A stretch of 20,000 nt of DNA from an uncultured virus (IMG/VR IMGVR_UViG_3300038679_000356) (IMGVR_UViG_3300038679_000356); one strand, 5' to 3'. Shown: positions 6,506-19,119, counted from the first letter of the stretch. Program-made: numbers and translations. Notes: generated from the letters alone by a model not told the origin.

Positions 6506-7426
6506 CTACTCTTTGTTATCTTGCCAAAAATGGGCAAGTCCTTCCTCGCACGTACATGCTGGATACCCACCTAAAATTCGATAGGTATCAAACACCTTTT
6601 CTGTACCACAAAAGCGGCATTTGCATAGCCATTTATACGAGCGTGCTAGATGTTTACTCAGCACAACGAACGATTCGGTTTCACGACCAACAAGGTTCTC
6701 CTCAGAATGGCAATGCTTCTTTCGACACTTTTTGCACATTGTACCGTGTTCGAGAAACACGATATTCATGTTTTTGAGGTTGCCGCAGTTCACGCACTCG
6801 CACTTCCATTCTGCCTGACCATAACGATTTCGTCCAACTTTCTCAACGACAGTCCAAGCGCCAACGCGACGACCAACAATATCCAATGACCGTTCCATCT
6901 TTGGGACGACGTAATCAACTATAGTAGATATATCCGCATCAGGAGGGACGATTACATAATTATCCGACTCTTGAGAGTGATATACATCACCAGAAAACCC
7001 GATACACAACGACCATGAAACCTTGGAGTTCTTGAGAATTTGATTGCACTCACCAACTTTCTTCCAATAATCATCCTTGGCGGGAGAAACACATTGCAAT
7101 TTACTCACAGGGCGTTTAAGCATATACAAGACGCCATCGAACTTGACGTTCTTCGAGACCCATCGGAATGCGCCCTGCGCATCACGAGCTGATCGTATAT
7201 ACGTCCAATCGCCATCAACCTTGCCGGTGCGATCTTCTCTCGAAATGCAGCCACACGACTGCGTCGCTCCTTGGCGCAGTTTGCCGCCGCCAACGTGACG
7301 CATGATCCCGCATTCACACTGGCATAGCCAGGCAATTGCTGTTCGACTTTTGTACTGGGGCTGCCCGACGACAGTCCACTTTCCCACCCTCATCCCGGTC
7401 ATATCAATTGAATGATTAGCTTTCAT
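6506..7426 (-). CDS. Protein built from repeats of the Cys-rich module found N-terminal in phage HNH/AP2 homing-endonuclease-like proteins
   Basis: Repeats DMTGMRVGKWTVV..WLCQCECG..SCGC, DIVGRRVGAWTVV..WKCECVNCG..CKKC, NLVGRETESFVV..WLCKCRFCG..CTC, plus a degenerate copy DRTGKVDGDWTYI..W. Confidence 0.75.
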   Translation of the reverse strand: MKANHSIDMTGMRVGKWTVVGQPQYKSRTAIAWLCQCECGIMRHVGGGKLRQGATQSCGCISREDRTGKVDGDWTYIRSARDAQGAFRWVSKNVKFDGVLYMLKRPVSKLQCVSPAKDDYWKKVGECNQILKNSKVSWSLCIGFSGDVYHSQESDNYVIVPPDADISTIVDYVVPKMERSLDIVGRRVGAWTVVEKVGRNRYGQAEWKCECVNCGNLKNMNIVFLEHGTMCKKCRKKHCHSEENLVGRETESFVVLSKHLARSYKWLCKCRFCGTEKVFDTYRILGGYPACTCEEGLAHFWQDNKE

Positions 7427-8986: not shown

Positions 8987-9004
8987 AGCAACGACCATGC
9001 CAAA
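8987..9004 (-). promoter_or_regulatory. Sigma54 (-24/-12) promoter upstream of hsp20
   Basis: Minus strand TTTGGCATGGTCGTTGCT = TGGCA-N6-TTGCT, with exact GG-N10-GC spacing. Confidence 0.7.
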
Positions 9005-9097
9005 CATATAATGAGGCGAAAATGTGTAATTAAGCTCAAAAACAGCGACTTAAAGTCTCTACTAAAGAGTCTTTTTGGCACACTGTTTGGCACAAAC

Positions 9098-9130
9098 AAA
9101 AAACCGCAGAAGAAATCTTCTGCGGTTTTT
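9098..9130 (-). terminator. Intrinsic terminator immediately after the tmRNA
   Basis: Perfect inverted repeat AAAAACCGCAGAAGA / TCTTCTGCGGTTTTT with A/T tails. Confidence 0.85.
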
Positions 9131-9545
9131 GGTGGACTCGGCGGGAGTCGAACCCGCGTGTTGCAACTGAACATTATCCAGACTTCTACACGTTTATCTA
9201 CCGTTTTCATAAGACCCCCGAGATGATCGATAGAACTCTTGCTCGGAGAGAATTCGGGATTCTTTGTCCTTGACCTACGGCGAGAGGCTCCCTATAGCCT
9301 ACGCTTTCGACTATTCCCACGTCAGACTCATCCGACAGTTAACGCCTTACGCCAGGACGGGAACTGGGTATCCTGGCGTTCCACTTACCGCCGTTAGGCG
9401 GCTAGATTGCTCTGTCGCTGATTAGGCGGCGCGAGCGAACTGCATAGGTTCGGCAGTTGTTTGTTGACCGATATTTTACGAAGCCAACGGTCATCTTCGA
9501 CGTGCCATCTGGCTGTACCGGAGCAATCGAAACCGGATCGAGCCC
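9130..9545 (-). ncRNA. ssrA: tmRNA (416 nt); predicted tag (A)AEPMQFARAA at 9454-9422
   Basis: 5' GGGCUCGAUCCGGUUUCGA pairs with 3' ...GCGGGUUCGACUCCCGC-CGAGUCC-ACCA (T arm, G3.U Ala determinant, encoded CCA). A pk1-like region is followed by ACAACU-GCC resume context and a reading frame ending GCC GCC UAA. Confidence 0.95.
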
Positions 9546-9560
9546 ATGATGAAAAAAAAA

Positions 9561-9690
9561 CCTCACGTAAGTTAAAGCAGCTTTTTTGGGTAAACATTGC
9601 CAGAATTGAACTGGCAACACTCAGTCTTGCACACTGATGCTCTTCCAATTGAGCTAAATGTTTGTAAGCCACTAAGGTTAGGACGTGAGG
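9561..9690 (-). ncRNA. Structured RNA 'A': conserved scaffold enclosing a 73-nt tRNA-like cloverleaf (9663-9591, GCA at the anticodon position); candidate Y-like RNA
   Basis: Stems CCUCACGU/ACGUGAGG and AGUGGCUU/AAGCUGCU; acceptor-like AAACAUU/AAUGUUU; D arm GCUC-AAUUGGAA-GAGC; UCAGU-GUGCAAG-ACUGA; T arm GCCAG-UUCAAUU-CUGGC. Followed by U9. Confidence 0.85.
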
Positions 9691-9700
9691 AAAGTAAAGA

Positions 9701-9851
9701 GGTACGCAAGTTAAAGCAGCATTGGATTTTCTCTCAATCGCTTGAGAGAGAACCCGGTAACTATTGGAGTTGAACCAATGACATCGAATTTATTAGATTC
9801 GCGCTCTACCAAGTGAGCTAAGTTTGTATGCCGCTAAGGTTGGGGCGTACC
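9701..9851 (-). ncRNA. Structured RNA 'B': same scaffold enclosing a tRNA-like module (AAU at the anticodon position, 4-bp acceptor) plus a GNRA hairpin; candidate Y-like RNA
   Basis: Stems GGUACGC/GCGUACC and AGCGGCAU/AUGCUGCU; AACU/AGUU; D arm GCUC-ACUUGGUA-GAGC; CGAAU-CUAAUAA-AUUCG; T arm AUUGG-UUCAACU-CCAAU; extra hairpin UCUCUCAA-GCGA-UUGAGAGA. Confidence 0.85.
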
Positions 9852-9864
9852 AAATCTGTTAAGG

Positions 9865-9876
9865 TTGTCAAAGAGC
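9865..9876 (-). promoter_or_regulatory. boxA-like antitermination element
   Basis: GCTCTTTGACAA between the promoter and the first RNA, close to the rrn boxA consensus GCTCTTTAACA. Confidence 0.65.
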
Positions 9877-9888
9877 TTTCACATCATC

Positions 9889-9916
9889 AATATAGGCTAT
9901 ACCAATAAATAATCAA
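9889..9916 (-). promoter_or_regulatory. Promoter of the ncRNA cluster, TTGATT-N16-TATATT
   Basis: Hexamers identical to two other intergenic sites; A/T tracts lie upstream. Confidence 0.72.
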
Positions 9917-9978
9917 GAGTTCCTTTGATAAAAAAAACTGGATTTTTTTGAAGTCACCTGAAACGCATGGCTACAAAG

Positions 9979-10010
9979 AAAAACTGCCGCACGAATTTAT
10001 CGTGCGGCAG
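9979..10010 (-). terminator. Intrinsic terminator closing the protein block before the ncRNA promoter
   Basis: CTGCCGCACGA / TCGTGCGGCAG stem followed by TTTTTCTTT on the minus strand. Confidence 0.85.
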
Positions 10011-10070
10011 CTCCAGGATAAGTGCGGATTATCGTACCTGGATTTTGTGGGAGGCAATTGTTAATGCATG

Positions 10071-11102
10071 TTACTTGGTGATGCGACGACCTACTTTCTT
10101 CCGAATCACGCTCACTCCGTTGTTTTTCGGAGCGGCTTTGCCAACTGAAAACACAACCCTCTCTGGAACAATCTCAAACACCTGCTTGGTGCCGGAAATG
10201 TTTGCTCGCTTCCACTTTACCATGTAATTGGCGTAACGAGAGATGGACTGACGAGTCGAACGCTCCTTACCACCATCCCATTCTTTCCTGTAGAAAGAAT
10301 TCCAGGCACCGCAGAAGGCATAAAGATTCTCTACATCAGAGCGCAACTTATGGATATCATCCATGGCGATCTTACGCGGATCACCACGACGGAGTCCGTC
10401 ATTCATTGCGAACCCACGAATAAATTCAGCAGCGGCGTCTTGGTCCTTACTGTAGCGTACGATCCACATACACACCGCCAGAATATGGCGACGATGCAAA
10501 ATTTCTCTGGCGATACGTTCGCCCCCGTCGATAAGGGCAACAACCTTCTTCAATGGGGCAAGCCACTCCGTCATGAGAGACAACACAAAATCTTTGTTGT
10601 TGAAGCGATAGTCATTCCTTGAACTTGATGACTTGAAGCCCTTGGCAATCACACGAATTGCACCAGACAAAAGAGTACGCTCCGTCTTCGTCAAACCAAG
10701 TTTTTGACACACATCCATGGAGTTGAATATATCCGCCTCCGTTCGACGCATGTGAATATCGAACCTGGAGTAGATCGCAGCGACTTCATCTTGACTGTTG
10801 CAGTCATACTCTTGAACCGTGAAGTTATATGACTGTCCGCTCTTGACGACAGCGGATAGAGTATGCTGCCCATTCGCCAAAAGATACTCTCCATTGAGGC
10901 GACACATAGCGATAATGTTTGTTGGAGTGAATGTGCCATTGCACATAAAGTTGGCAAGATCATCAACGTGCCATTCACGAATGGGGCGCTGCTTATCGTA
11001 CTTGCAGTTTGTAAGAATCTGCAACGCCGCTTTTGGACCGATGTTCATTGTTTTTGTTTTTGACGGGATGCTGGTTTTCACCAGAGTGGCTGTCTCTATC
11101 AT
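10071..11102 (-). CDS. Protein with an N-terminal ParB/Srx-like domain
   Basis: QRPIREWHVDDLA..M..G.F...YLLANGQHTLSAVV resembles the ParB-like DGQHR motif. Confidence 0.7.
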   Translation of the reverse strand: MIETATLVKTSIPSKTKTMNIGPKAALQILTNCKYDKQRPIREWHVDDLANFMCNGTFTPTNIIAMCRLNGEYLLANGQHTLSAVVKSGQSYNFTVQEYDCNSQDEVAAIYSRFDIHMRRTEADIFNSMDVCQKLGLTKTERTLLSGAIRVIAKGFKSSSSRNDYRFNNKDFVLSLMTEWLAPLKKVVALIDGGERIAREILHRRHILAVCMWIVRYSKDQDAAAEFIRGFAMNDGLRRGDPRKIAMDDIHKLRSDVENLYAFCGAWNSFYRKEWDGGKERSTRQSISRYANYMVKWKRANISGTKQVFEIVPERVVFSVGKAAPKNNGVSVIRKKVGRRITK

Positions 11103-11141
11103 TTTCTTGGTTCCTTGCGTTATTGCTGGGATAAGCCCAGG

Positions 11142-11777
11142 TTAAGAAATTTTCAAATCAAGAAGCGTGAACGACTTTGAAGTTTTAACACCATGTTGAA
11201 TAAACGCAATAATCAACTCGATGGTGATTGCGGAGGTGATTACGGCAAGATTCCTGGCAAGAGGAACGTGACATGGGTCAACGCCAGAGTCTCCCTTCGG
11301 AACAATATACGACTCATTCCATACCGCTTCCGAATAGCCGTCACCCATACCAGAATGAATGCAATGCATTTTTTTGGCGAGGCAATAGTCATAAACGATT
11401 CGGCGAGACAAGGCGTTGTCAAATGCATCAACAACAATATCACTGCCTCTCAGTAATTTGTCGACATTGTTTTCGTCAAGTCGTTTGTCAACACATTCGA
11501 TAACAACTCCGACTGCATCTTCAATGATATTGCCGATAGCCATAACCTTTTTCGACCCGCAATCGACACGAGAATATGGTTGTGTACACAAATTAGATGG
11601 ATCAACCCGGTCAAAGTCAATCATCTTAATGGCTTCAAACCCGCAACGAGCCATGCCTTCTGCGATATTGGCTCCAAGAGCACCAGCGCCACAAATAACC
11701 ACCTTGGTAGAAGACATCTTTGTCATGACAGCTTTGGTGCGAAAGGCGGTTTCATGCTGATGAACTGCATCGTCCAT
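11142..11777 (-). CDS. ThiF/MoeB/E1-like adenylyltransferase
   Basis: VVICGAGALG, IDFDRVDPSNLCTQ, KKV, VVDAFDN...R; no CxxC zinc pairs; a Cys in DPCH. Confidence 0.92.
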   Translation of the reverse strand: MDDAVHQHETAFRTKAVMTKMSSTKVVICGAGALGANIAEGMARCGFEAIKMIDFDRVDPSNLCTQPYSRVDCGSKKVMAIGNIIEDAVGVVIECVDKRLDENNVDKLLRGSDIVVDAFDNALSRRIVYDYCLAKKMHCIHSGMGDGYSEAVWNESYIVPKGDSGVDPCHVPLARNLAVITSAITIELIIAFIQHGVKTSKSFTLLDLKIS

Positions 11778-11794
11778 AAAAAATCCTTCTTGTT

Positions 11795-12643
11795 TTACAT
11801 TCCATCATCGCGTCGTTCAACGACATCGACAAGTGTTTGTAGATCAAAATCGTTATCTCGTCCAGAAAGACACATACCGGCGGACATAACCGTCATATCC
11901 GACTTCATGATTGAAGAGGAGGAGCGTCGTCCAGATCCTGTTTTCCATTCCACGTTCCAAAAATCTCCACGATCAACAAACGACAGCATTTTTCCACCGC
12001 CTCGCTCAAGTGCTTTGCGGATTTTGTCCTCATCTGTTGGCGGACATGAAACGCCAACAACTGGTTTTGGATCGATAGCCAACTTAAATGCAGCTTCATC
12101 TTCTGCTGACAATCCAGAAATGCGGCGCAGCTTGCGAACATCATACGACTCTGTCATTCCTACCCTTACTGCAGGAATGTCACTTCGGTCTGGTCCTTCA
12201 TACCACCAAATTGAACCGTCATATCTGGCTGTGATGGCATGAAATCTTGTTCCAGAATCAACAAGACGAATTGCCACGGGTGTTATGCTGCCAAATTTTG
12301 CCTCATACGATCCACGGTTCCTGGGCAACGCTGCCCAAGAAGAATCGATTCCCTGAAAGCATAACCGGAACCTGGCTTTTGGGAATTGCGAAAGATATGA
12401 AGAGATCTGCCTTTTGGGGGCTTCCCCTTCTAGCTTTGCAACGTTTGAAGAAGATTCCACCGAGAACCTTCCCCAGCCTTCAAAGTTTGGATCAGAAGGG
12501 CGAAGGCGAACAACAATTCCAGCTAATTTAACGCAGATCCTACCGCGAGGGACACAGGGAGCCACAAACGGGGAGGCGATCGAGCTGTCATGCTCGGCAG
12601 CCACCCTGTCAATAAGATCGAATATGTCCCGTTTCATCATCAT
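11795..12643 (-). CDS. Hypothetical protein with C-terminal SAGMCLSG.D.DFDL motif
   Basis: 282-aa ORF, translationally coupled (ATGA) to the vWA gene and ending 17 bp before the E1-like gene. Confidence 0.8.
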   Translation of the reverse strand: MMMKRDIFDLIDRVAAEHDSSIASPFVAPCVPRGRICVKLAGIVVRLRPSDPNFEGWGRFSVESSSNVAKLEGEAPKRQISSYLSQFPKARFRLCFQGIDSSWAALPRNRGSYEAKFGSITPVAIRLVDSGTRFHAITARYDGSIWWYEGPDRSDIPAVRVGMTESYDVRKLRRISGLSAEDEAAFKLAIDPKPVVGVSCPPTDEDKIRKALERGGGKMLSFVDRGDFWNVEWKTGSGRRSSSSIMKSDMTVMSAGMCLSGRDNDFDLQTLVDVVERRDDGM

Positions 12644-13425
12644 TCTAAAGATTGAATCTTTCCGTAAAGAGAATAGGCGTAAGACAGCTTAAAGCCTAAT
12701 TTCTCAGCAATTGACTCAATGTTTTCGATGCCACATTCCTTTATGGCGTTATGGAGCTTTTCCATGTCTTCCGAAGTAGTCTGCAATTCACTCATAAGGG
12801 CATTAATGGCTTTGATTGGATTATTAATGTCGCCCAATTTACCGCCAGTCATATCAGCGATACGCTCGAATTCCTTAGCGACGCGACCGACTGACAATGG
12901 AATGGCATAAACTATTGCACCGACCTTTTCAGCAGCAGCAGTGCATTCATGTAACCCAATTCCAGATGGAGTTTTTTTGCTCCACTTACCAGAATTTTTT
13001 AAACCTGCTAACACTTCAACATCATGTTCCATAATTGCGTGAGGCATAGCGTCACCAACTAAAACGATGATTCTGGCAGATGTGCCAGATCGCCAGTCAA
13101 TACCAGTAGCGGCAGCATAAACACCATCATATACAGCCTCTGGCTCATCACCACCGCCGCTGGGGGCGATACGCTGAATGACGGACTTGATCTTATCAGA
13201 ATTTCCAAGAGCGGATTTACCAAATTTGTGAACCTTCGTGACAAACGAAGTGTCTTCTGGAGGATGATCACGAAACTCAACAACACCACACATGATATCG
13301 AGTTTACTAGAGGCGTCGTCAATGATTCGTTTAATATTGGTGCGAGCCATCGAAATGAAAGGCGACATACTTCCAGTCGTGTCGATGACAAAAACAACAT
13401 CAACTTTATTAAATGTAGTGGTCAT
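12640..13425 (-). CDS. von Willebrand factor A domain protein
   Basis: MIDAS-type DVVFVIDTTGSM, GVVEFRDH, GGGDEPEAV, IVLVGDAMPH. Confidence 0.92.
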   Translation of the reverse strand: MTTTFNKVDVVFVIDTTGSMSPFISMARTNIKRIIDDASSKLDIMCGVVEFRDHPPEDTSFVTKVHKFGKSALGNSDKIKSVIQRIAPSGGGDEPEAVYDGVYAAATGIDWRSGTSARIIVLVGDAMPHAIMEHDVEVLAGLKNSGKWSKKTPSGIGLHECTAAAEKVGAIVYAIPLSVGRVAKEFERIADMTGGKLGDINNPIKAINALMSELQTTSEDMEKLHNAIKECGIENIESIAEKLGFKLSYAYSLYGKIQSLE

Positions 13426-13519
13426 GATTGATTGCCTACTAACTGTATTTTCTTAATTATGTTGACGCCAATATTTATCGATGGAAGGGAGTTGGAGATT
13501 CCCAACTCCCTCAAGCTAT

Positions 13520-13711
13520 TCAGCCGTAGACAGCTTCCGGACGAACCATATATTCTCCGGCATCGTTCTTGGCGACGACCAAACTGTTCAGATCATCGAC
13601 TGCGACATCGAGTTGCTGAGCAGCAATTTCCCTTACTTGGGCGTCCGTGGACCCTTCTTTGATTTCGACTTCGAAGTCGTAAGAGGTACCGTTGTATCTG
13701 ACGTGGAGCAT
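13520..13711 (-). CDS. Small putative beta-grasp (ubiquitin-like) protein with C-terminal Gly
   Basis: 63 aa; strand-strand-helix-strand-strand pattern (LHVRY/SYDFEV/DAQVREIAAQQL/LVVAK/YMVRP) ending PEAVYG; RBS GAAGGAG; E1-like gene three genes downstream. The fold is inferred. Confidence 0.72.
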   Translation of the reverse strand: MLHVRYNGTSYDFEVEIKEGSTDAQVREIAAQQLDVAVDDLNSLVVAKNDAGEYMVRPEAVYG

Positions 13712-15276
13712 GTTGCTTCTCCTTCTTCTGATTCTGGTTCTGCTTTAAGGATTGCGTCCACCGTGGACGCCCTCTCTATTTTTTTCAAGGACTTGAAGAG
13801 ACAATCCTCAGCGTCTTCCCTTGTCGGAAGAGGCGTTTCAGCAATCTCCATAAGGAGAGCCAATCGGGATGGGCGAGACAGCATAGAAACAAGATTGCCG
13901 AATCCATAGTAATCACCCTCAAATACGAGAGTGTCTACTGATGCGCCAACTTCCCGCAAACGTTTCTGACAATAATCCTTGTATTCGCCGACTCTAACAA
14001 TCGTCACATTCGGTGACGCACCCGTTGCCTTGCAATACTTCTGATATGCTTCACCGGAATAGGGCGAGGCATTTTCCTGTTCATCAGTCACGATGACGAC
14101 CTGTTCTACATAGCGCTTTGCCCGTTCCAGAGCAGCAAAGCCAGAACCAACGGAAGTTGAACCGGATGCGGTAAGTCCACGGAAAGCCTTGATCCAATCA
14201 GTCGCTTCCTTACCTTCCGACTTAATCTCCATCGCCATATCGTTGAAAGCATAAACATACAAGTCAGACTCACAAACTCCGGAAAGAATACCGGCAATGT
14301 GTGTGCCGACTGCGATTGCCACATGCAGAGATCCAGAACGGTCAACCAAAATTGCGGTCGGGCACTTGATGCGCCCCTTCGCCTTGACGGTCTCGTTCGT
14401 CGCCTTTTCGAGTTTCTTTCGAGTCTCTGCATCAACGCCTACGACATCAGCAGCCACCGCTGCCTTGGTGCCAGACGCACGCTTGTCCTTTGACACTTTG
14501 TCAATCTTGGCGTGGACCATCTTGCGCATCTCTTCATCATCCATCGCACCACGGCGCTTCAACTGACCAATGCAGTTGACAACTTCCTGCGGACTCATGG
14601 ACTCAATGAGAGCGACCAAGATTGGCGCAGTAATCGCAGGAACGGCACCGACCGCAATCGTGAACGGAATGCGCTTCTCAACGATCATGCGAGCACGATC
14701 AACGTCAGACATATCTTTGTCCGACAAAACTTTAACAAAGTATGGTGCCGAACCCTCTGGAGGTTCGTTTTTGAACAGGATGTCGTTAGCACGCGGCGTC
14801 GGTTTGACGTGCAATGATGCATACATCGTCCGCATAGCGGTCTTCGACCGAACAACGGTGGCGTCAAACCACTTCTCGTTCATTTCTCGTGTGCGCAAGT
14901 ACATTTTGACAGCAGTACGAAATGCGGTCGGCACGCTGTTGAAATGGATTTTCAAATGCCGAAGAACACGCGGAATCTGGAACGGAGGAAGATCAACAAG
15001 CATTGCAAACGCTGCACTACGGTGCTCCTCAAGCTTAGAGAGAAACATCGTAGCAATGAAAACCTCCTTATGATCACGAATATCACCATTCAGGTAATAC
15101 CACGCAGCCAGGCGTCCATAAAACGTCGGATCGGCGAGCATGAATTCCTTATGCAAGGAAATGATATCCTTAACTTCCCGATGAGGAGTGCTCAGCAAGC
15201 TGTTGATGATGCCAAGCCGAACGTCACGCTCCTGAGAGGAAGCTTCCTTTACCACACTCTTCTTAGCCATAATCAT
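13633..15276 (-). CDS. Ro60/TROVE-like protein (helical N-terminal region + C-terminal vWA)
   Basis: Helical, basic N-terminal ~300 aa with DPTFYGRLAAW...IRD (TROVE-like); vWA ILVDRSGS, GSTS, VVIVTDEQEN. Size and layout fit Ro60. Start at 15276 or 15270. Confidence 0.75.
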   Translation of the reverse strand: MIMAKKSVVKEASSQERDVRLGIINSLLSTPHREVKDIISLHKEFMLADPTFYGRLAAWYYLNGDIRDHKEVFIATMFLSKLEEHRSAAFAMLVDLPPFQIPRVLRHLKIHFNSVPTAFRTAVKMYLRTREMNEKWFDATVVRSKTAMRTMYASLHVKPTPRANDILFKNEPPEGSAPYFVKVLSDKDMSDVDRARMIVEKRIPFTIAVGAVPAITAPILVALIESMSPQEVVNCIGQLKRRGAMDDEEMRKMVHAKIDKVSKDKRASGTKAAVAADVVGVDAETRKKLEKATNETVKAKGRIKCPTAILVDRSGSLHVAIAVGTHIAGILSGVCESDLYVYAFNDMAMEIKSEGKEATDWIKAFRGLTASGSTSVGSGFAALERAKRYVEQVVIVTDEQENASPYSGEAYQKYCKATGASPNVTIVRVGEYKDYCQKRLREVGASVDTLVFEGDYYGFGNLVSMLSRPSRLALLMEIAETPLPTREDAEDCLFKSLKKIERASTVDAILKAEPESEEGEATCSTSDTTVPLTTSKSKSKKGPRTPK

Positions 15277-15297
15277 TTTCCTTTATTCTTTGAAAAA

Positions 15298-15750
15298 TTA
15301 TTTACCAGAACTGCCAAACCCACCAACGCCACGATCAGAGTCAGCAAGACTGTCTGTCAACTCAAATTCAATGTGTTCGTGTTTCTTGAGAACGATTTGA
15401 GCGATTTTCATTCCTGCCGTCACCAGAAACTCTGTTCCTGCTTTGAGACTAGTGAGAATCACGCAAACTTCTCCACGATACCCAGAATCAATAGTTCCAG
15501 GCGTATTGACAACCGTAATGCCATGCTTCAAAGCAAGCCCAGACTTTGGACGAACCTGAATTTCATAGCCCGCAGGAATCTCAACAGCAAAACCACACTT
15601 GATCACTGTAAGTTCACCATATCTGATAACTCCATCCACTGGAGAATAGACATCCATTCCGGCATCACCTTCGTTTGCGTATGTTGGTGCGCGAACTGCC
15701 GAGGTAGAAGATCCATCCGCAGAAAATTTCATAAATTTGACTTTCGTCAT
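15298..15750 (-). CDS. dut: Trimeric dUTPase
   Basis: AGMDV, RPKSGLA, GTIDSGYRGE, KIAQ, RGVGGFGSSG. Start at ATG 15750 with RBS GAGAGGA. Confidence 0.97.
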   Translation of the reverse strand: MTKVKFMKFSADGSSTSAVRAPTYANEGDAGMDVYSPVDGVIRYGELTVIKCGFAVEIPAGYEIQVRPKSGLALKHGITVVNTPGTIDSGYRGEVCVILTSLKAGTEFLVTAGMKIAQIVLKKHEHIEFELTDSLADSDRGVGGFGSSGK

Positions 15751-15802
15751 TGTGTTCCTCTCTATGGTTCTATGTGCCGGTGAGATTATGCAGTACATTC
15801 AA

Positions 15803-15830
15803 AAGATAGCTTAAACAAAATGACTTTCAA
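15803..15830 (-). promoter_or_regulatory. Sigma70-like promoter TTGAAA-N16-TATCTT for dut and the Ro block
   Basis: Intergenic, directly after a terminator, 16-bp spacer. Confidence 0.6.
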
Positions 15831-15841
15831 GCATTGTTGAT

Positions 15842-15876
15842 AAAAAAAATCCCTGATTTTTGTAATCCAGGGATTT
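15842..15876 (-). terminator. Intrinsic terminator
   Basis: AAATCCCTG...CAGGGATTT stem running into T8 on the minus strand. Confidence 0.75.
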
Positions 15877-15933
15877 AGCTTTAATCGAGTTGGGATCTAC
15901 CGTGTCAGTGATACTCGGTAGAGTATCCACACT
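15842..15933 (-). ncRNA. Candidate small RNA (~90 nt) between a promoter and a terminator
   Basis: TTGACA-N17-TAATAT at 15940-15968; GAUACUC-UACC-GAGUAUC hairpin and an alternative UCUACCG/CGGUAGA pairing; no ORF. Confidence 0.45.
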
Positions 15934-15939
15934 TTTTCT

Positions 15940-15968
15940 ATATTAGATTTTTCTGTGTTAATTGTCAA
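15940..15968 (-). promoter_or_regulatory. Sigma70-like promoter TTGACA-N17-TAATAT
   Basis: Perfect -35 hexamer and 17-bp spacer. Confidence 0.65.
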
Positions 15969-16173
15969 GTGAAGAATTGAAAAATATATTGACACATGAG
16001 TGTCCTCCGTACGAAACCGGGCGCATTGAGTAGTCAACGCCTTCGATGGTGATTGTGATAGCACCGCATGCACAGTTCCGGCTCGGTCTGGAAAAGAACA
16101 TTGAAAAGCTGGAGAAAATTGCTTCTTCCATTGCCCCTTTTCTTAATTTTTCACATTCGTCCCGCCATTTCAT
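15958..16173 (-). CDS. Hypothetical protein
   Basis: Tiles closely after the 16182-16415 ORF on the coding strand. Confidence 0.5.
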   Translation of the reverse strand: MKWRDECEKLRKGAMEEAIFSSFSMFFSRPSRNCACGAITITIEGVDYSMRPVSYGGHSCVNIFFNSSLDN

Positions 16174-16181
16174 CGAGCCTG

Positions 16182-16415
16182 CTACTTTTGCTCAATATTG
16201 AGGCAACGTGGCTTGATGAGAATTTCTGGGATAACAAAGTGTGTGTATGGATAAACATTCTTATCCACATTCGACTCCTTGATCTCAAGGATATAAGTCG
16301 TGCCAATAACGGCTTGTCCCTCATTGGCAATTCCACAAACAACACCAACACCACTTACTGCTTTCGAAGCGGAAAATTCAACAACATCACCTTGCTTATA
16401 CAAATGATTGCTCAT
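16182..16415 (-). CDS. Small hypothetical protein, possible SH3-like beta barrel
   Basis: YKQGDVVEF...GVGVVCG...YILE pattern; RBS-like AAAGGG. Confidence 0.65.
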   Translation of the reverse strand: MSNHLYKQGDVVEFSASKAVSGVGVVCGIANEGQAVIGTTYILEIKESNVDKNVYPYTHFVIPEILIKPRCLNIEQK

Positions 16416-16452
16416 TAAAATGCCCTTTGTTTTAATCGGGAAGAAATTTCAG

Positions 16453-16680
16453 CTAAACGATTTTTAGCCACGAATCATTATCAAAAAATTCAATTTGGAA
16501 AATAGAAAATTCATCGAGCGAAAACTCATCAAAAATTTGTTCTCGGTCGAACGTGCAGACGTAATATGAAGACTGATAGGCGATGCGAACTGATTCATCA
16601 GGATCAAGAAAATCAAGAATTGAACCGATGACCGCTGGAGCTGCATCTTCTTGAACGCGGATCAAATTCGTTTTAACCAT
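16453..16680 (-). CDS. Small acidic hypothetical protein
   Basis: Co-oriented ORF with ATG start downstream of the promoter at 16794-16821. Confidence 0.6.
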   Translation of the reverse strand: MVKTNLIRVQEDAAPAVIGSILDFLDPDESVRIAYQSSYYVCTFDREQIFDEFSLDEFSIFQIEFFDNDSWLKIV

Positions 16681-16711
16681 ATTCTTTATCCATTATGATG
16701 TAATGGGGAAT

Positions 16712-16781
16712 AATCACGCAAGTTTCAACAGCAACGATAACTACCAAAAAGTTTGTACGCCGTTAATGTTAGGGCGTGACT
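16712..16781 (-). ncRNA. Structured RNA 'C': minimal (70-nt) copy of the A/B scaffold without the tRNA module
   Basis: AGUCACGC-CCUAACAUU-AACGGCG-UACA-AACU-UUUUGGU-AGUU-AUCGU-UGCUGUU-GAAACUU-GCGUGAUU. Same stems and loop motifs as RNAs A and B, with compensatory changes; promoter 12 bp upstream. Confidence 0.8.
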
Positions 16782-16793
16782 TTCCTTAGCAAT

Positions 16794-16821
16794 AATATAA
16801 CCAGGAGCAGAAAACAATCAA
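16794..16821 (-). promoter_or_regulatory. Promoter TTGATT-N16-TATATT driving RNA C
   Basis: Same hexamers and spacing as the promoter of the RNA A/B/tmRNA cluster. Confidence 0.72.
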
Positions 16822-16825
16822 GCAA

Positions 16826-17173
16826 TCAACGACGTTTTTTGTTGGATTTCGATAATCTGTGCTTGAAATTAGCAGTCGTACGTCCCTTTTTCCATTTCAC
16901 ATAGTTGCCAAAACCTTCATGCGTCATAATTTTCTGTTCCGAATCATAAGCGGCAGCCAGAACCTTTTCCGGGATCAAGGCGTGAAGCTGTTTATGGCAA
17001 TCGGAACACATCAATGATTGCAGATTGGACAACTCCAATCTCGTAACACATCGGCGCTTCGCTTCTTTTGCCAACAATGTTTTAGGAACGAGGTGATGCC
17101 AAGTCAAATCATTTTCAGCGCCACAAGCAAAACAAACTTTATTTGGTGGAGTTGTAGATTGATCGTAGTCCAT
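16826..17173 (-). CDS. Small HNH-family endonuclease-like protein (start 17173 or 17197)
   Basis: CFACG...LTWHHLVPK...LMCSDCHKQLH. Confidence 0.82.
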   Translation of the reverse strand: MDYDQSTTPPNKVCFACGAENDLTWHHLVPKTLLAKEAKRRCVTRLELSNLQSLMCSDCHKQLHALIPEKVLAAAYDSEQKIMTHEGFGNYVKWKKGRTTANFKHRLSKSNKKRR

Positions 17174-17849
17174 TGTTAAGCGATCTCCTTGGATCATTTC
17201 TCATCTCTACAATAATCCTAGATGCGGTATCTGCCAACTCTCCTTGTCCACTACGAGCTACCTCCGCCACAAAAGCAGATAAAAAATCAACCTTATCAAT
17301 CTGTTCATCATTGATGAGATATTCTTTTGACGCTAGGGAAAACTCTGGGGCGACCAACGCTTTTGGAGGCGAAATAATATGTGGTAGATTAAGCTTAACA
17401 CAGTCGATACTTGACGTATGGAATGTTGTCAGCATGTCTACCCTTTGCTTGTTATGTTCTTCTGGACACTCAATTTTATACTTCCCTTTCACTACAACAA
17501 TATATCGTGGTGACATCCCACGAATAGACAACAAAATTTCATCGCCTGAAACATCACAAAACGTCGCGCCAGACCTCAATACGTTGCGTAAAATGCACCG
17601 AAGATCGTGCGGCGCGACATACAGATGTGGCTCATCATCATAGGCGTCGATGGCATAGAATACAACCAAAGGCTCCGACAAGAACCCTTGTGCAGCCAAC
17701 GCCATAGCGCCAGTCTCATCATCCGAATCAACATGTGCCCCGGATGAAAGATAAAACCGGTATAAGGCAAGAGGCTTGCCATAGATCCGTAACAGGTACG
17801 ACTCTCCAGGGCAAGCCTCAACGAGATTGACGATTTGATTCGCGATCAC
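17139..17849 (-). CDS. Hypothetical protein
   Basis: 236-aa ORF; its GTG start overlaps the upstream stop (GTGA). Confidence 0.75.
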   Translation of the reverse strand: MIANQIVNLVEACPGESYLLRIYGKPLALYRFYLSSGAHVDSDDETGAMALAAQGFLSEPLVVFYAIDAYDDEPHLYVAPHDLRCILRNVLRSGATFCDVSGDEILLSIRGMSPRYIVVVKGKYKIECPEEHNKQRVDMLTTFHTSSIDCVKLNLPHIISPPKALVAPEFSLASKEYLINDEQIDKVDFLSAFVAEVARSGQGELADTASRIIVEMRNDPRRSLNNGLRSIYNSTK

Positions 17850-18214
17850 TTCTGAGGAATTTCCACGTCAAGCAACGCTGCAAATTTCTTTTCTTTGGCT
17901 CGTATAATGCATTGATTAATGCTTTGGCGTCGGAGATCGTCATTGATATAGGTAAGAAACGAACGAAATTTCTCCTCATCAAAAAATCCAAAACTCACAC
18001 AATCCTTCACAAACCTTTCCCGATCAAATAGGATAGAGTCATCCTCATTAAGGAGAGGGTAGCTGCGATACCTTCTTTTAAACGCACTCGCCAATGCACG
18101 CATTTTTTCCTCGGGAGAAACACATTCTACAGGCTCACTTGTTTCCACCTTTTTATCCGTGGCTGGCTCAATTTTATTTTTGCCAAACAATTTCGACAAC
18201 CAATTTTTACTCAT
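17846..18214 (-). CDS. Hypothetical protein
   Basis: ATGA overlap with the sigma gene stop; 122 aa. Confidence 0.75.
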   Translation of the reverse strand: MSKNWLSKLFGKNKIEPATDKKVETSEPVECVSPEEKMRALASAFKRRYRSYPLLNEDDSILFDRERFVKDCVSFGFFDEEKFRSFLTYINDDLRRQSINQCIIRAKEKKFAALLDVEIPQK

Positions 18215-19119
18215 TTGCGGGTTCCTTTTCTATCAAAAACAGAGTAGCTTTTACTCATTCTTTTTACTGCTTGGACCTGAATCTGCCTGATCCTTTCAGG
18301 AGTCAACCCAAACATATCGCCGATCTCACGAAGTTTCAATATTTCCGCTCCGTCCAATCCATAACGATGCCTAATCACCGTTTTTTCAATGTTATCAAGA
18401 AGATCAAATGCCTGCCTGGCAATAGTAACGCTTTGTCTATCCGATACCATCTCCACTTCCGGTGCTGGAATATCGGCATACTCCAAAGGGACGCGATGCC
18501 TGTTGGTTAATTCAATAAGCCAGTCAACTTCATCTTCACTAACATCGCATGATTCGGAAACTTCGAGGTTGGTTGGCGGGCGTCCATTTTCCAACTCAAA
18601 CTTTCTTATAAAAGAAACGACCCGCCCGGCGGCAAGGCATTTCCCTGTACCAATAGACATTGCCCTGGAGGGATGGTATTTAGCAACCTCGCAAGTAATT
18701 TCACGCCTCATCCACCAAATAAGGTAGCCGCTAAGCTTCCCCTTCTTTGGGTCAAAGCGCTGCATAGCCTTCATTAAGGCAGTGTTACCACAGGCAACAA
18801 GTTCTTCAAAACGAAGTCCATATCCCATGAACTCTTTTGAAACCAATTTAAGAACGAGTCGAAGATTCCCGTTGACAAGTTTATTAATCGCCTCATCCCT
18901 GCTCACGACAGCATCAGCTTCTCCGACAGCATCTCCCATAACCTTGGCTGCCTCAGCAGTGGAAATAGCACGATCCCTGTCGTCGACCAACTGTTTCACT
19001 TCACTTTCCGAAAGAACAGCAAGGCGACTCACATCGCGGCTGTATATCTCTTTCGATGACAGTTGTTTGTATTGCTCATCAATGGACAATTCACTTTCAC
19101 AAACAAAATACTCCTGCAT
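18211..19119 (-). CDS. Sigma70-family RNA polymerase sigma factor (RpoD/RpoS-like, lacking region 1.1)
   Basis: Region 2 NLRLVLKLV..ELVACGNTALMKAMQRFDPKKG..YLIWWMRREI; region 3 GRPPTNLEVS; region 4 LREIGDMFGLTPERIRQIQ. Confidence 0.93.
   Translation of the reverse strand: MQEYFVCESELSIDEQYKQLSSKEIYSRDVSRLAVLSESEVKQLVDDRDRAISTAEAAKVMGDAVGEADAVVSRDEAINKLVNGNLRLVLKLVSKEFMGYGLRFEELVACGNTALMKAMQRFDPKKGKLSGYLIWWMRREITCEVAKYHPSRAMSIGTGKCLAAGRVVSFIRKFELENGRPPTNLEVSESCDVSEDEVDWLIELTNRHRVPLEYADIPAPEVEMVSDRQSVTIARQAFDLLDNIEKTVIRHRYGLDGAEILKLREIGDMFGLTPERIRQIQVQAVKRMSKSYSVFDRKGTRK

Follow-up and report, generated by a model that had tools for sequence, protein, structure and literature searches.

The question raised by this locus is what a 70-nt structured element might be doing upstream of a gene for a Ro60-like protein in the genome of an uncultured virus, where two larger RNAs built on the same scaffold are also encoded. 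The element lies on the minus strand of the window, i.e. the whole stretch of 20,000 nt that was analysed, and an earlier note made from the sequence had described it as a third, cargo-free copy of an RNA scaffold and as the likely protein-binding core. The window derives from what we consider a large groundwater phage with an RNA-repair neighbourhood. All large ORFs are on the minus strand, and the genes identified using Pfam include those for DNA ligase, UvrD-type helicase, HD/kinase, RlaP, NYN, Hsp20, ThiF, vWA, dUTPase, sigma factor and thymidylate synthase, together with a tmRNA detected by Rfam and ARAGORN. The three scaffold copies, the parts of the short one (hereafter copy C) and the neighbouring protein gene are as follows.

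16712..16781, minus strand: short scaffold RNA (copy C of the window), recognised by direct reading, MFE folding, a leave-one-out model and alignment with 26 short copies
16774..16781, minus strand: P1 5' strand AGUCACGC, pairing with GCGUGAUU at 16712-16719 (8 of 8 standard pairs)
16767..16773, minus strand: internal loop 5' strand CCUAACA, in which C10, C11 and A14 are invariant family-wide
16758..16766, minus strand: P2 5' strand UUAACGGCG, pairing with UGCUGUUGA at 16725-16733 (9 of 9 pairs including G-U, MFE fold)
16751..16757, minus strand: UACAAAC motif, in which U, A, C, A and then A and C are invariant family-wide
16739..16753, minus strand: apical hairpin at the cargo position, comprising AACU, the loop UUUUGGU and AGUU (4-bp stem, 7-nt loop)
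16720..16724, minus strand: internal loop 3' strand AACUU, in which A, C and U are invariant family-wide
9560..9691, minus strand: scaffold copy with a complete tRNA-Cys(GCA)-like cloverleaf, followed by a U9 run (covariance model R2, ARAGORN and Rfam tRNA)
9699..9853, minus strand: scaffold copy with a tRNA-like body and an extra hairpin (covariance model R2; Rfam tRNA 47.8 bits, model positions 4-67)
13633..15276, minus strand: Ro60-like protein gene, 547 aa, with a helical ring and a C-terminal vWA domain carrying DRSGS

Read from 16781 down to 16712, copy C consists of AGUCACGC, CCUAACA, UUAACGGCG, UACAAAC running into the apical hairpin, AUCGU, UGCUGUUGA, AACUU and GCGUGAUU, so that P1, an internal loop, P2, the UACAAAC motif and a small apical hairpin are accommodated within 70 nt, and the last three bases of UACAAAC form the base of the apical stem. 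Direct reading of the minus strand recovered every scaffold feature that had been listed previously, including the 7-bp core AACGGCG/UGCUGUU, which is contained in the 9-bp P2. The compensatory swap reported between copy C and the 9699-9853 copy, A-U versus G-C in P2, is genuine, and the same comparison reveals a one-sided change, G-U versus A-U. There are zero mismatches across the 17 stem pairs, and all family-invariant bases are kept. When compared with shuffles, the minus strand of 16712-16781 folds with a minimum free energy of -20.0 kcal/mol (z -2.69) and the plus strand with a z of only -0.31. The separation of about 7 kb from both cargo-bearing copies, as claimed before, was also confirmed; however, the three copies flank the Ro-like gene, which is 1.4 kb downstream of copy C and 3.8 kb upstream of the two long copies, and the distance therefore still spans one gene neighbourhood. 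Copy C is the sole window copy upstream of the gene, and the arrangement in the window is atypical for the family described below.

The resemblance among the three copies exceeds chance. In the 20-kb window the 23-nt 5' motif was found at exactly three sites, always on the minus strand, and none of 200 shuffles gave three occurrences. A leave-one-out covariance model, R2, constructed from 26 short copies of other loci and containing no window sequence, was searched against both strands of the 20-kb window with filters off. Copy C was detected with 53.6 bits (E 1.1e-12), the 9560-9691 copy with 42.5 bits and the 9699-9853 copy with 32.3 bits, and no further match was obtained at E <= 1. The score of copy C falls inside the range of 43-72 bits observed for the short copies (<= 100 nt) of named genomes.

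Covariation of the scaffold, for which the earlier note had pointed to a compensatory swap, was found throughout a larger alignment of 27 short copies (62-87 nt, copy C included). Standard pairs occupy 88.2% of the P1 and P2 cells, compared with 35-49% when the partners are slid by 1-3 columns. For P1, 93.5% of the cells are paired and two-sided changes are present at 8/8 pairs, and the corresponding values for P2 are 83.5% and 9/9; two-sided changes are thus observed at all 17 scaffold pairs, and the observed values were reached in 0 of 500 column shuffles. The helices of the family are under selection, and copy C is an intact family member.

The family is defined by the P1 and P2 helices, an internal loop whose 5' strand contains CCUAAC and whose 3' strand contains RACUU, and UACANAC directly after the 5' strand of P2. 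Copy C possesses both helices, both loop strands and the UACANAC motif, is detected by R2, and lies on the same strand as, and close to, the Ro-like/vWA gene. Relatives of the Ro-like protein numbered 329 at E <= 0.001 among the 7,999 candidates scored; those listed are mostly about 477 aa long, and few are named, most of these cyanobacterial. From the DNA around these relatives, 96 loci were analysed (80 metagenome and 16 viral), and a simple motif scan revealed a recurring core on the strand of the Ro-like gene. A first covariance model gave 238 matches at E <= 0.01, of which 235 lie in 75 of the 96 loci and three are the window copies, the training copies matching by construction. All 235 copies are upstream of the Ro-like gene and on its strand, although many loci are near-duplicates, and there are consequently fewer independent cases than the locus counts imply. 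Five complete viral records (57-390 kb) gave 16 matches, all of them upstream of the Ro-like gene at distances of up to about 4.5 kb, with none elsewhere.

The same linkage was observed beyond metagenomes. A relative of the Ro-like protein is encoded in 534 of 553 candidate stretches from the species-representative genomes (genome_contigs). The best 80 named loci belong mostly to filamentous cyanobacteria (Nostoc, Microcoleus, Oscillatoria, Spirulina, Kamptonema and Hormoscilla), and Ignavibacteria, Bacteroidia, Kapaibacteria, Chitinophagales, Acidobacteriota and Armatimonadota are represented as well. In these best 80 loci R2 gave 320 matches, and the 300 listed are without exception on the strand of the Ro-like gene. 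The position as an upstream leader is not universal, because copies are found downstream of the gene in a few non-cyanobacterial named loci (L097, L105, L123 and L140); in addition, a copy of about 205 nt is situated 2.5-4 kb downstream in about a dozen loci, mostly of Nostoc and other cyanobacteria. In the viral_contigs collection, a strict 23-nt pattern matched 0 stretches, and a looser 14-base pattern matched 64 stretches, but a real scaffold was recognised by the model in only 4 of those loci, indicating that the remaining 14-base matches are due to chance; a single-protein scan of the same collection confirmed no relative of the Ro-like protein. Taken together, copy C belongs to a large and apparently uncatalogued small-RNA family that is tied to a divergent clade of Ro60-like proteins.

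The assignment of the neighbouring protein as Ro-like is borne out by its fold and not by sequence profiles. No Pfam family was matched at E <= 0.001, TROVE included, no PDB sequence was matched at E <= 1, and the sole PHROGs profile match was phrog_850, "RNA-binding protein" (5e-6). An AlphaFold model (pLDDT 79, from a 14-sequence alignment) consists of helices over residues 19-298 followed by an alpha/beta domain, and the sequence contains DRSGS, a MIDAS-type motif. The top Foldseek matches in the PDB are 9kop, 1yvp (Xenopus Ro), human Ro60 and 2nvo (Deinococcus Rsr), with E values from 1e-11 to 1e-9 and alignments of 505-527 columns at 12-17% identity. The best of these, 9kop, is the Ro60 protein of Thermus phage phiLo (E 1.3e-11, TM 0.72 on the target, 17% identity). 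Since the best structural matches are Ro60/TROVE proteins, the term Ro-like is correct at the level of the fold.

The inserts carried by the scaffold were sorted for 148 distinct copies, defined by the motif and closing stem, using crude sequence rules, and the following classes were obtained.

49 of 148: tRNA-like insert with normal arm order
31 of 148: tRNA-like insert with the T arm before the D arm (circularly permuted, as in YrlA)
10 of 148: insert with a T arm only
9 of 148: insert with AGUACGAGAGGA, 23S sarcin-ricin-like
5 of 148: insert with CCUAAGGUAGCGAA, 23S-like
16 of 148: other long inserts
28 of 148: short hairpin (<= 100 nt)

We take AGUACGAGAGGA to be the sequence of the 23S sarcin-ricin loop, and CCUAAGGUAGCGAA presumably corresponds to 23S domain IV. 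The proposal that the scaffold forms a unit by itself and that its insert can be exchanged is strongly supported by these data, as one core is combined with several kinds of insert and both of its helices covary. The description of copy C as cargo-free must be qualified. It does lack a large insert, but a small hairpin occupies the cargo position, and this hairpin recurs in the family and may be a cargo in its own right. In 15 of the 27 aligned short copies, the apical fold starts within UACANAC. Among 47 distinct short copies with the exact motif, the best hairpin has a 7-nt loop in 18, the commonest size, and a stem starting at motif position 5 combined with a 7-nt loop is the commonest short form (10 of 47). 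U is the second base in 17 of these 18 loops and a purine the sixth in 12, and the loops mostly follow CU-NNN-A-N with a variable middle triplet. In an independent genome set, 14 of 23 hairpins have a 7-nt loop, representing 11 distinct loops with C first in all 11, U second in 10 and a purine sixth in 6. The loop of copy C, UUUUGGU, shares U at the second and a purine at the sixth position but begins with U.

These regularities resemble an anticodon loop and suggest a speculative reading. The hairpin of copy C would be a mimic of an anticodon stem-loop, the family would serve to display target sites of ribotoxins and anticodon nucleases, and the unit nearest the gene would couple sensing to expression of the Ro-like operon; we regard this as unlikely. 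On the same low estimate, the inserts displayed would range from complete and permuted tRNAs through the 23S sarcin-ricin loop and another 23S piece to bare anticodon loops, and it is equally improbable that they serve the neighbouring RNA-repair genes as decoys or damage sensors. The likeness to anticodon loops is a lead only, and shared ancestry of the cyanobacterial copies could give the same pattern.

The short copies (<= 100 nt) constitute 68 of the 235 copies and occupy a preferred position. A short copy stands last before the Ro-like gene in 43 of 75 loci, mostly ending 20-115 nt ahead of the estimated start codon, and in named genomes a short copy ends no more than 200 nt before the gene match in at least 43 of 80. 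In loci with multiple copies a short copy is last in 34 of 62, although short copies account for only 59 of 222, which is about twice the frequency expected from random order. The possibility of a role in cis, raised by the earlier note from the location of copy C in the leader of the 16453-16680 ORF, is strengthened by this family-wide leader position. In cyanobacteria, at least 14 of 32 leaders examined by eye have a CCUCC...GGAGG hairpin that follows the short copy and precedes the start codon; it would cover the ribosome-binding site and fits translational control there. Nevertheless, 25 of the 68 short copies are not last in their array and are followed by further RNA units, e.g. in L079, L084 and L090. 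Between the last short copy and the Ro-like gene, one ORF intervenes in phage locus L084 and three in phage locus L092, resembling the window, where orf75, orf77, orf71 and dUTPase intervene. In the phage-like locus L079, in which the short copy is inside the array, a tmRNA is found downstream. A conserved GCGUGCGA stretch after cyanobacterial short copies, considered as an alternative pairing partner of P1, was dropped owing to inconsistency across loci by eye; it is possibly a variant form of the GCGATCGC repeat of cyanobacteria.

In the window itself, the surroundings of copy C contain three further features.

16794..16821, minus strand: promoter-like site TTGATT-16-TATATT, a consensus match only (9 of 12), ending 13 nt before copy C
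16690..16706, minus strand: small hairpin CCAUUA/UAAUGG between copy C and the ORF start, in the fold of 16650-16787
16453..16680, minus strand: orf75, a 75-aa ORF directly downstream of copy C

A start directed by the promoter-like site would lie about 5-6 nt before P1. Identical hexamers, TTGATT and TATATT, precede the 9699-9853 copy at 9916-9889, and promoter-like sites as such are not enriched in the window (15 found versus 13.5 expected from shuffles). The leader at 16650-16787 folds with -35.8 kcal/mol (z -3.5), and in this fold the stem of copy C is lengthened by flanking GGAA/UUCC pairing, with no clear sequestering of a ribosome-binding site. Copy C ends 32 nt upstream of the ATG of orf75. 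No U-run or terminator follows P1, whereas the 9560-9691 copy ends in U9, and transcription is therefore expected to run on into the co-directional genes below, namely orf75, orf77, orf71, dUTPase and then the Ro-like gene. Further promoter-like sites occur between copy C and the Ro-like gene (15968-15940 and 15830-15803), and these, together with four ORFs and a gap of 1,436 nt, render co-transcription of the two uncertain. The orf75 product had no relatives in viral_contigs and matched only itself at E <= 0.01 among 5.8 billion proteins, and orf75, orf77 and orf71 gave no tblastn match in the 96 loci; being without relatives, orf75 is perhaps not a true gene. Its product is on record from a 340,706-bp contig.

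Closest to the window in synteny are L001 and L002, which have 58% protein identity and share with the window the gene order orf236, HNH, dUTPase, Ro-like, vWA, orf282, ThiF, two scaffold RNAs, tmRNA, Hsp20, NYN, orf306 and RlaP. Between HNH and dUTPase, however, these loci have a gap of 174 nt with a promoter-like site only, in which orf75, orf77 and orf71 are absent, and a filter-free model search of both loci found no short copy. The model matched only two long copies there, both weak (13.4 and 10.7 bits), divergent and downstream of the gene; their loop strands differ, and their P2 contains a tandem A-G/G-A mismatch. Because the scaffold is missing at this site, copy C is not conserved in a second genome, and the case for its functionality rests on its intactness and on the pattern of the family. 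Contigs from the same samples (four groundwater-metagenome DNA runs) diverge around 15900-16113, indicating a variable stretch, and copy C has no differing letters in the contigs of groundwater-metagenome runs X2 and X3. A megablast search with 9000-17000 against 50,697 phage records gave no match.

Comparison with known Ro systems reveals both likeness and difference. In PMC4201824, YrlB of Salmonella Typhimurium and Mycobacterium smegmatis and Yrn2 of Deinococcus radiodurans are described as short hairpin Y RNAs bound by Rsr, a short hairpin Y RNA is encountered beside a tRNA-like one, and a single precursor encoded upstream of rsr yields both YrlA and YrlB in M. smegmatis. Copy C resembles YrlB and Yrn2 in that it is short and rod-like with a small loop, lies no more than a few kb from a Ro60-type gene and on its strand, and has longer tRNA-like RNAs alongside. 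The 7-nt loop of copy C, UUUUGGU, contains 5 pyrimidines. Copy C differs in its core, which is the CCUAAC/AACUU loop plus UACANAC, and in its predicted partner, which is undetected by the Pfam TROVE model. In PMC4201824 and PMC12135203, bacterial and phage Y RNAs are defined by GNCGAAN0-1G, or CGAA, near the 5' end, a motif thought to contact Ro, but by direct reading CGAA is absent from all 70 nt of copy C. Thermus phage phiLo (PDB 9KOP and 9L5Y) likewise has a Ro60-fold protein with small RNAs encoded nearby, and according to PMC12135203 this protein binds in vitro two upstream Y-like RNAs, Yrl1 and Yrl2, identified by a CGAA motif in a large bulge. The window RNAs, in contrast, are without CGAA and belong to a family of hundreds of copies with exchangeable inserts.

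The plan of YrlA (RF02553), a terminal Ro stem plus a tRNA-like module, recurs in the 9560-9691 and 9699-9853 copies and in the copies with permuted tRNAs, whereas copy C has neither a T nor a D arm and lacks the binding motif. No tRNA match was obtained in 16600-16900, and YrlA gave no match at E <= 10 in 16600-16900 or 9540-9900, no match at the gathering score in the whole window, and none over the cut-off in two related jumbo-phage records (best 26.3 bits versus 69). Among 4,227 Rfam families, only weak chance matches were seen around copy C (DdR11, E 0.11; rli24, E 7), nothing besides tRNA for the inserts was matched at E <= 10 around the long copies, and six related loci (99.8 kb) gave only tRNA and tmRNA at the gathering score. 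In the literature searched we found no description of the scaffold or of rRNA-like inserts on Y RNAs, although prior mention is possible. Copy C and its putative partner represent a Ro/Y-RNA system in kind, yet one outside the described RNA families. Autoregulatory leaders, such as those of ribosomal-protein operons, copy the RNA-binding site of their protein. Copy C may be comparable as a putative copy of a cognate site in the 5' leader of the protein's own operon, but it precedes an ORF without relatives, and the protein gene is 1.4 kb further down.

Herein, we propose that copy C is a short-class scaffold RNA, the minimal binding unit of the Ro-like protein at the 5' end of an operon transcript, a reading in which we place about half of our confidence. 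Since short copies keep all invariant positions, the CCUAAC/AACUU loop, P1, P2 and UACANAC can reasonably be taken as the predicted protein-binding core. This core would bind the phage's own Ro-like protein (13633-15276). Transcription would begin just upstream of copy C, at TTGATT-16-TATATT, and might continue through orf75, orf77, orf71, dUTPase and the Ro-like gene, with copy C forming the 5' end. Copy C may then be excised as an RNA of about 70 nt and occupy the protein with no large effector module attached, in a manner comparable to YrlB and Yrn2 in classical Ro systems; alternatively or additionally, it may let the Ro-like protein act on its own message.

There are two main rival explanations, both of which we consider possible but doubtful. 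According to one, copy C would be a purely cis-acting autoregulatory operator, with the protein binding the leader scaffold and repressing or stabilising the message, and no separate RNA would exist. The short copy at 20-115 nt before the Ro-like start codon in most loci having one, the hairpin able to cover the ribosome-binding site in at least 14 of 32 leaders, and the location of copy C 32 nt before an ATG with no terminator are consistent with such an operator; it is at variance with the 25 of 68 short copies that are not last, which in L079, L084 and L090 are followed by RNA units and not by the gene, and in the window the leader has no clear ribosome-binding-site sequestering and the gene right after copy C is an ORF without relatives, not the Ro-like gene. 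According to the other, copy C would act in trans as an independent small RNA under a promoter of its own, a minimal Y-like RNA occupying or gating the Ro-like protein, and the position before orf75 would be incidental. The lack of a terminator after P1 would here require a processing step, and the positional bias toward the gene would be left unexplained, even though the promoter-like site puts the start about 5-6 nt before P1, short copies also reside inside arrays, and the pairing of a short hairpin Y RNA with a tRNA-like one is a feature of known Ro systems (PMC4201824).

Two further explanations carry less weight. Copy C might be a dead remnant of a longer copy that has lost its insert and is kept by chance in a variable region, which we regard as very unlikely. 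Its absence at the syntenic site of L001 and L002 and its location in a variable stretch, beside the HNH endonuclease gene and ORFs without relatives, where contigs diverge at 15900-16113, would suit a remnant; decay is difficult to reconcile with 17 stem pairs without a mismatch, the retention of all invariant bases and a score of 53.6 bits within the 43-72 bits of named-genome short copies, and the short copies are a recurrent, positioned class and not rare accidents. Slightly less probable still is a structural 5' cap or processing signal only, in which a stable stem would protect or delimit the transcript without binding the Ro-like protein. Such a function agrees with the 5'-proximal position relative to the predicted start and with the stem lengthened by GGAA/UUCC pairing, but a generic stabiliser needs no invariant CCUAAC, AACUU and UACANAC across distant phyla and phages, and the scaffold loops are always found beside one protein family.

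Ro60 and Y RNAs form a classic RNA-protein particle, of which the bacterial side rests on few species and one binding motif. Copy C is the smallest natural version of a second, sequence-distinct scaffold accompanying a Ro60-fold protein, and this protein is encoded in 534 stretches of species-representative genomes and in jumbo phages. Having no large insert, copy C marks the constant, presumably protein-binding core in 70 nt and therefore offers a direct substrate for binding and structural studies. Because short units recur beside the Ro-like gene, feedback of a Ro-type protein on its own message becomes testable. Moreover, the rRNA-like inserts suggest that Ro-type particles may be aimed at more RNA targets than tRNA mimicry implies.

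The insert of the scaffold RNA differs from copy to copy. In the scaffold copy at 9560-9691 (-), the insert is a complete cloverleaf, identified by ARAGORN as tRNA-Cys(GCA), with a 7-bp acceptor stem that starts within the UACAAAC motif; the closing stem of this copy is followed by a terminator-like run of nine U. Two scaffold copies each were observed in L001 (14207-14488) and L002 (11406-11687), the loci most closely related to the window, and in these copies the loop strands are altered and P2 is interrupted midway by a tandem A-G/G-A mismatch. As in the window, both pairs are located just 5' of a tmRNA. In the window and in L001, the tmRNA lies directly 3' of the scaffold RNAs; in L079, another locus around a relative of the Ro-like protein, it lies a few kb 3' of them. 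The tag encoded by the window tmRNA is AEPMQFARAA.

Phage-encoded tmRNAs
window 9130-9545 (-)
L079 4979-5372
L001 ~14490-14930

Inserts resembling pieces of 23S rRNA were observed in some scaffold copies of cyanobacterial loci, using a motif scan and a sorting by crude sequence rules. The first type is AGUACGAGAGGA, which is sarcin-ricin-loop-like, and the second type is CCUAAGGUAGCGAA. Copies of the sarcin-ricin type are frequently found downstream of the Ro-like gene, at a distance of 2.5-4 kb.

Scaffold copies with 23S-rRNA-like pieces
L003 2420-2630
L003 15063-15293
L007 10727
L013 4094
L015 12827
L010 142
L015 1807
L018 9115

In the cyanobacterial-type locus L003, more than 25 tRNA genes are densely clustered (1-2904) a few kb 5' of the scaffold array. 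Among the other genes of the window, two are HNH-endonuclease-like according to PHROGs, at 6506-7426 (-) and 16826-17197 (-), and the latter ends 45 nt upstream of the short scaffold copy at 16712-16781 (-). The window itself also encodes a sigma-70-type factor (18211-19119).

The region between this short copy and the Ro-like gene (13633-15276, -) is variable. A stretch of approximately 70 bp between orf71 and the dUTPase gene (15901-15977) was found again on at least five other contigs from the same sample, with a depth of 112 versus 21. Several contigs part from the window sequence at 16009-16113, and contigs break at 16060/16084 in one run. Together, 15901-15977 and 16009-16113 represent a repeat or recombination hot spot.

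In the leaders of Ro-like genes, a CCUCC...GGAGG hairpin was noted by eye between the start codon and the nearest short scaffold copy (L003, L005, L009, L013, L018, L021, L026, L027, L032, L038, L039, L055, L057 and L078), and this hairpin would cover the ribosome-binding site of the Ro-like gene. A conserved GCGUGCGAC-like stretch, also recognized by eye, is often located 5' of the hairpin.

The genes 3' of the Ro-like gene are recurrent, and were observed in the window (10071-13425, -), in L001 (11761-14069) and in approximately 30-35 other loci. The encoded proteins include a 282-aa protein belonging to no Pfam family (35 loci), a ThiF/E1-like protein (30 loci) and a vWA protein (10 loci). 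Because this gene set recurs, the results suggest that the Ro-like gene and its followers form a larger conserved cassette.
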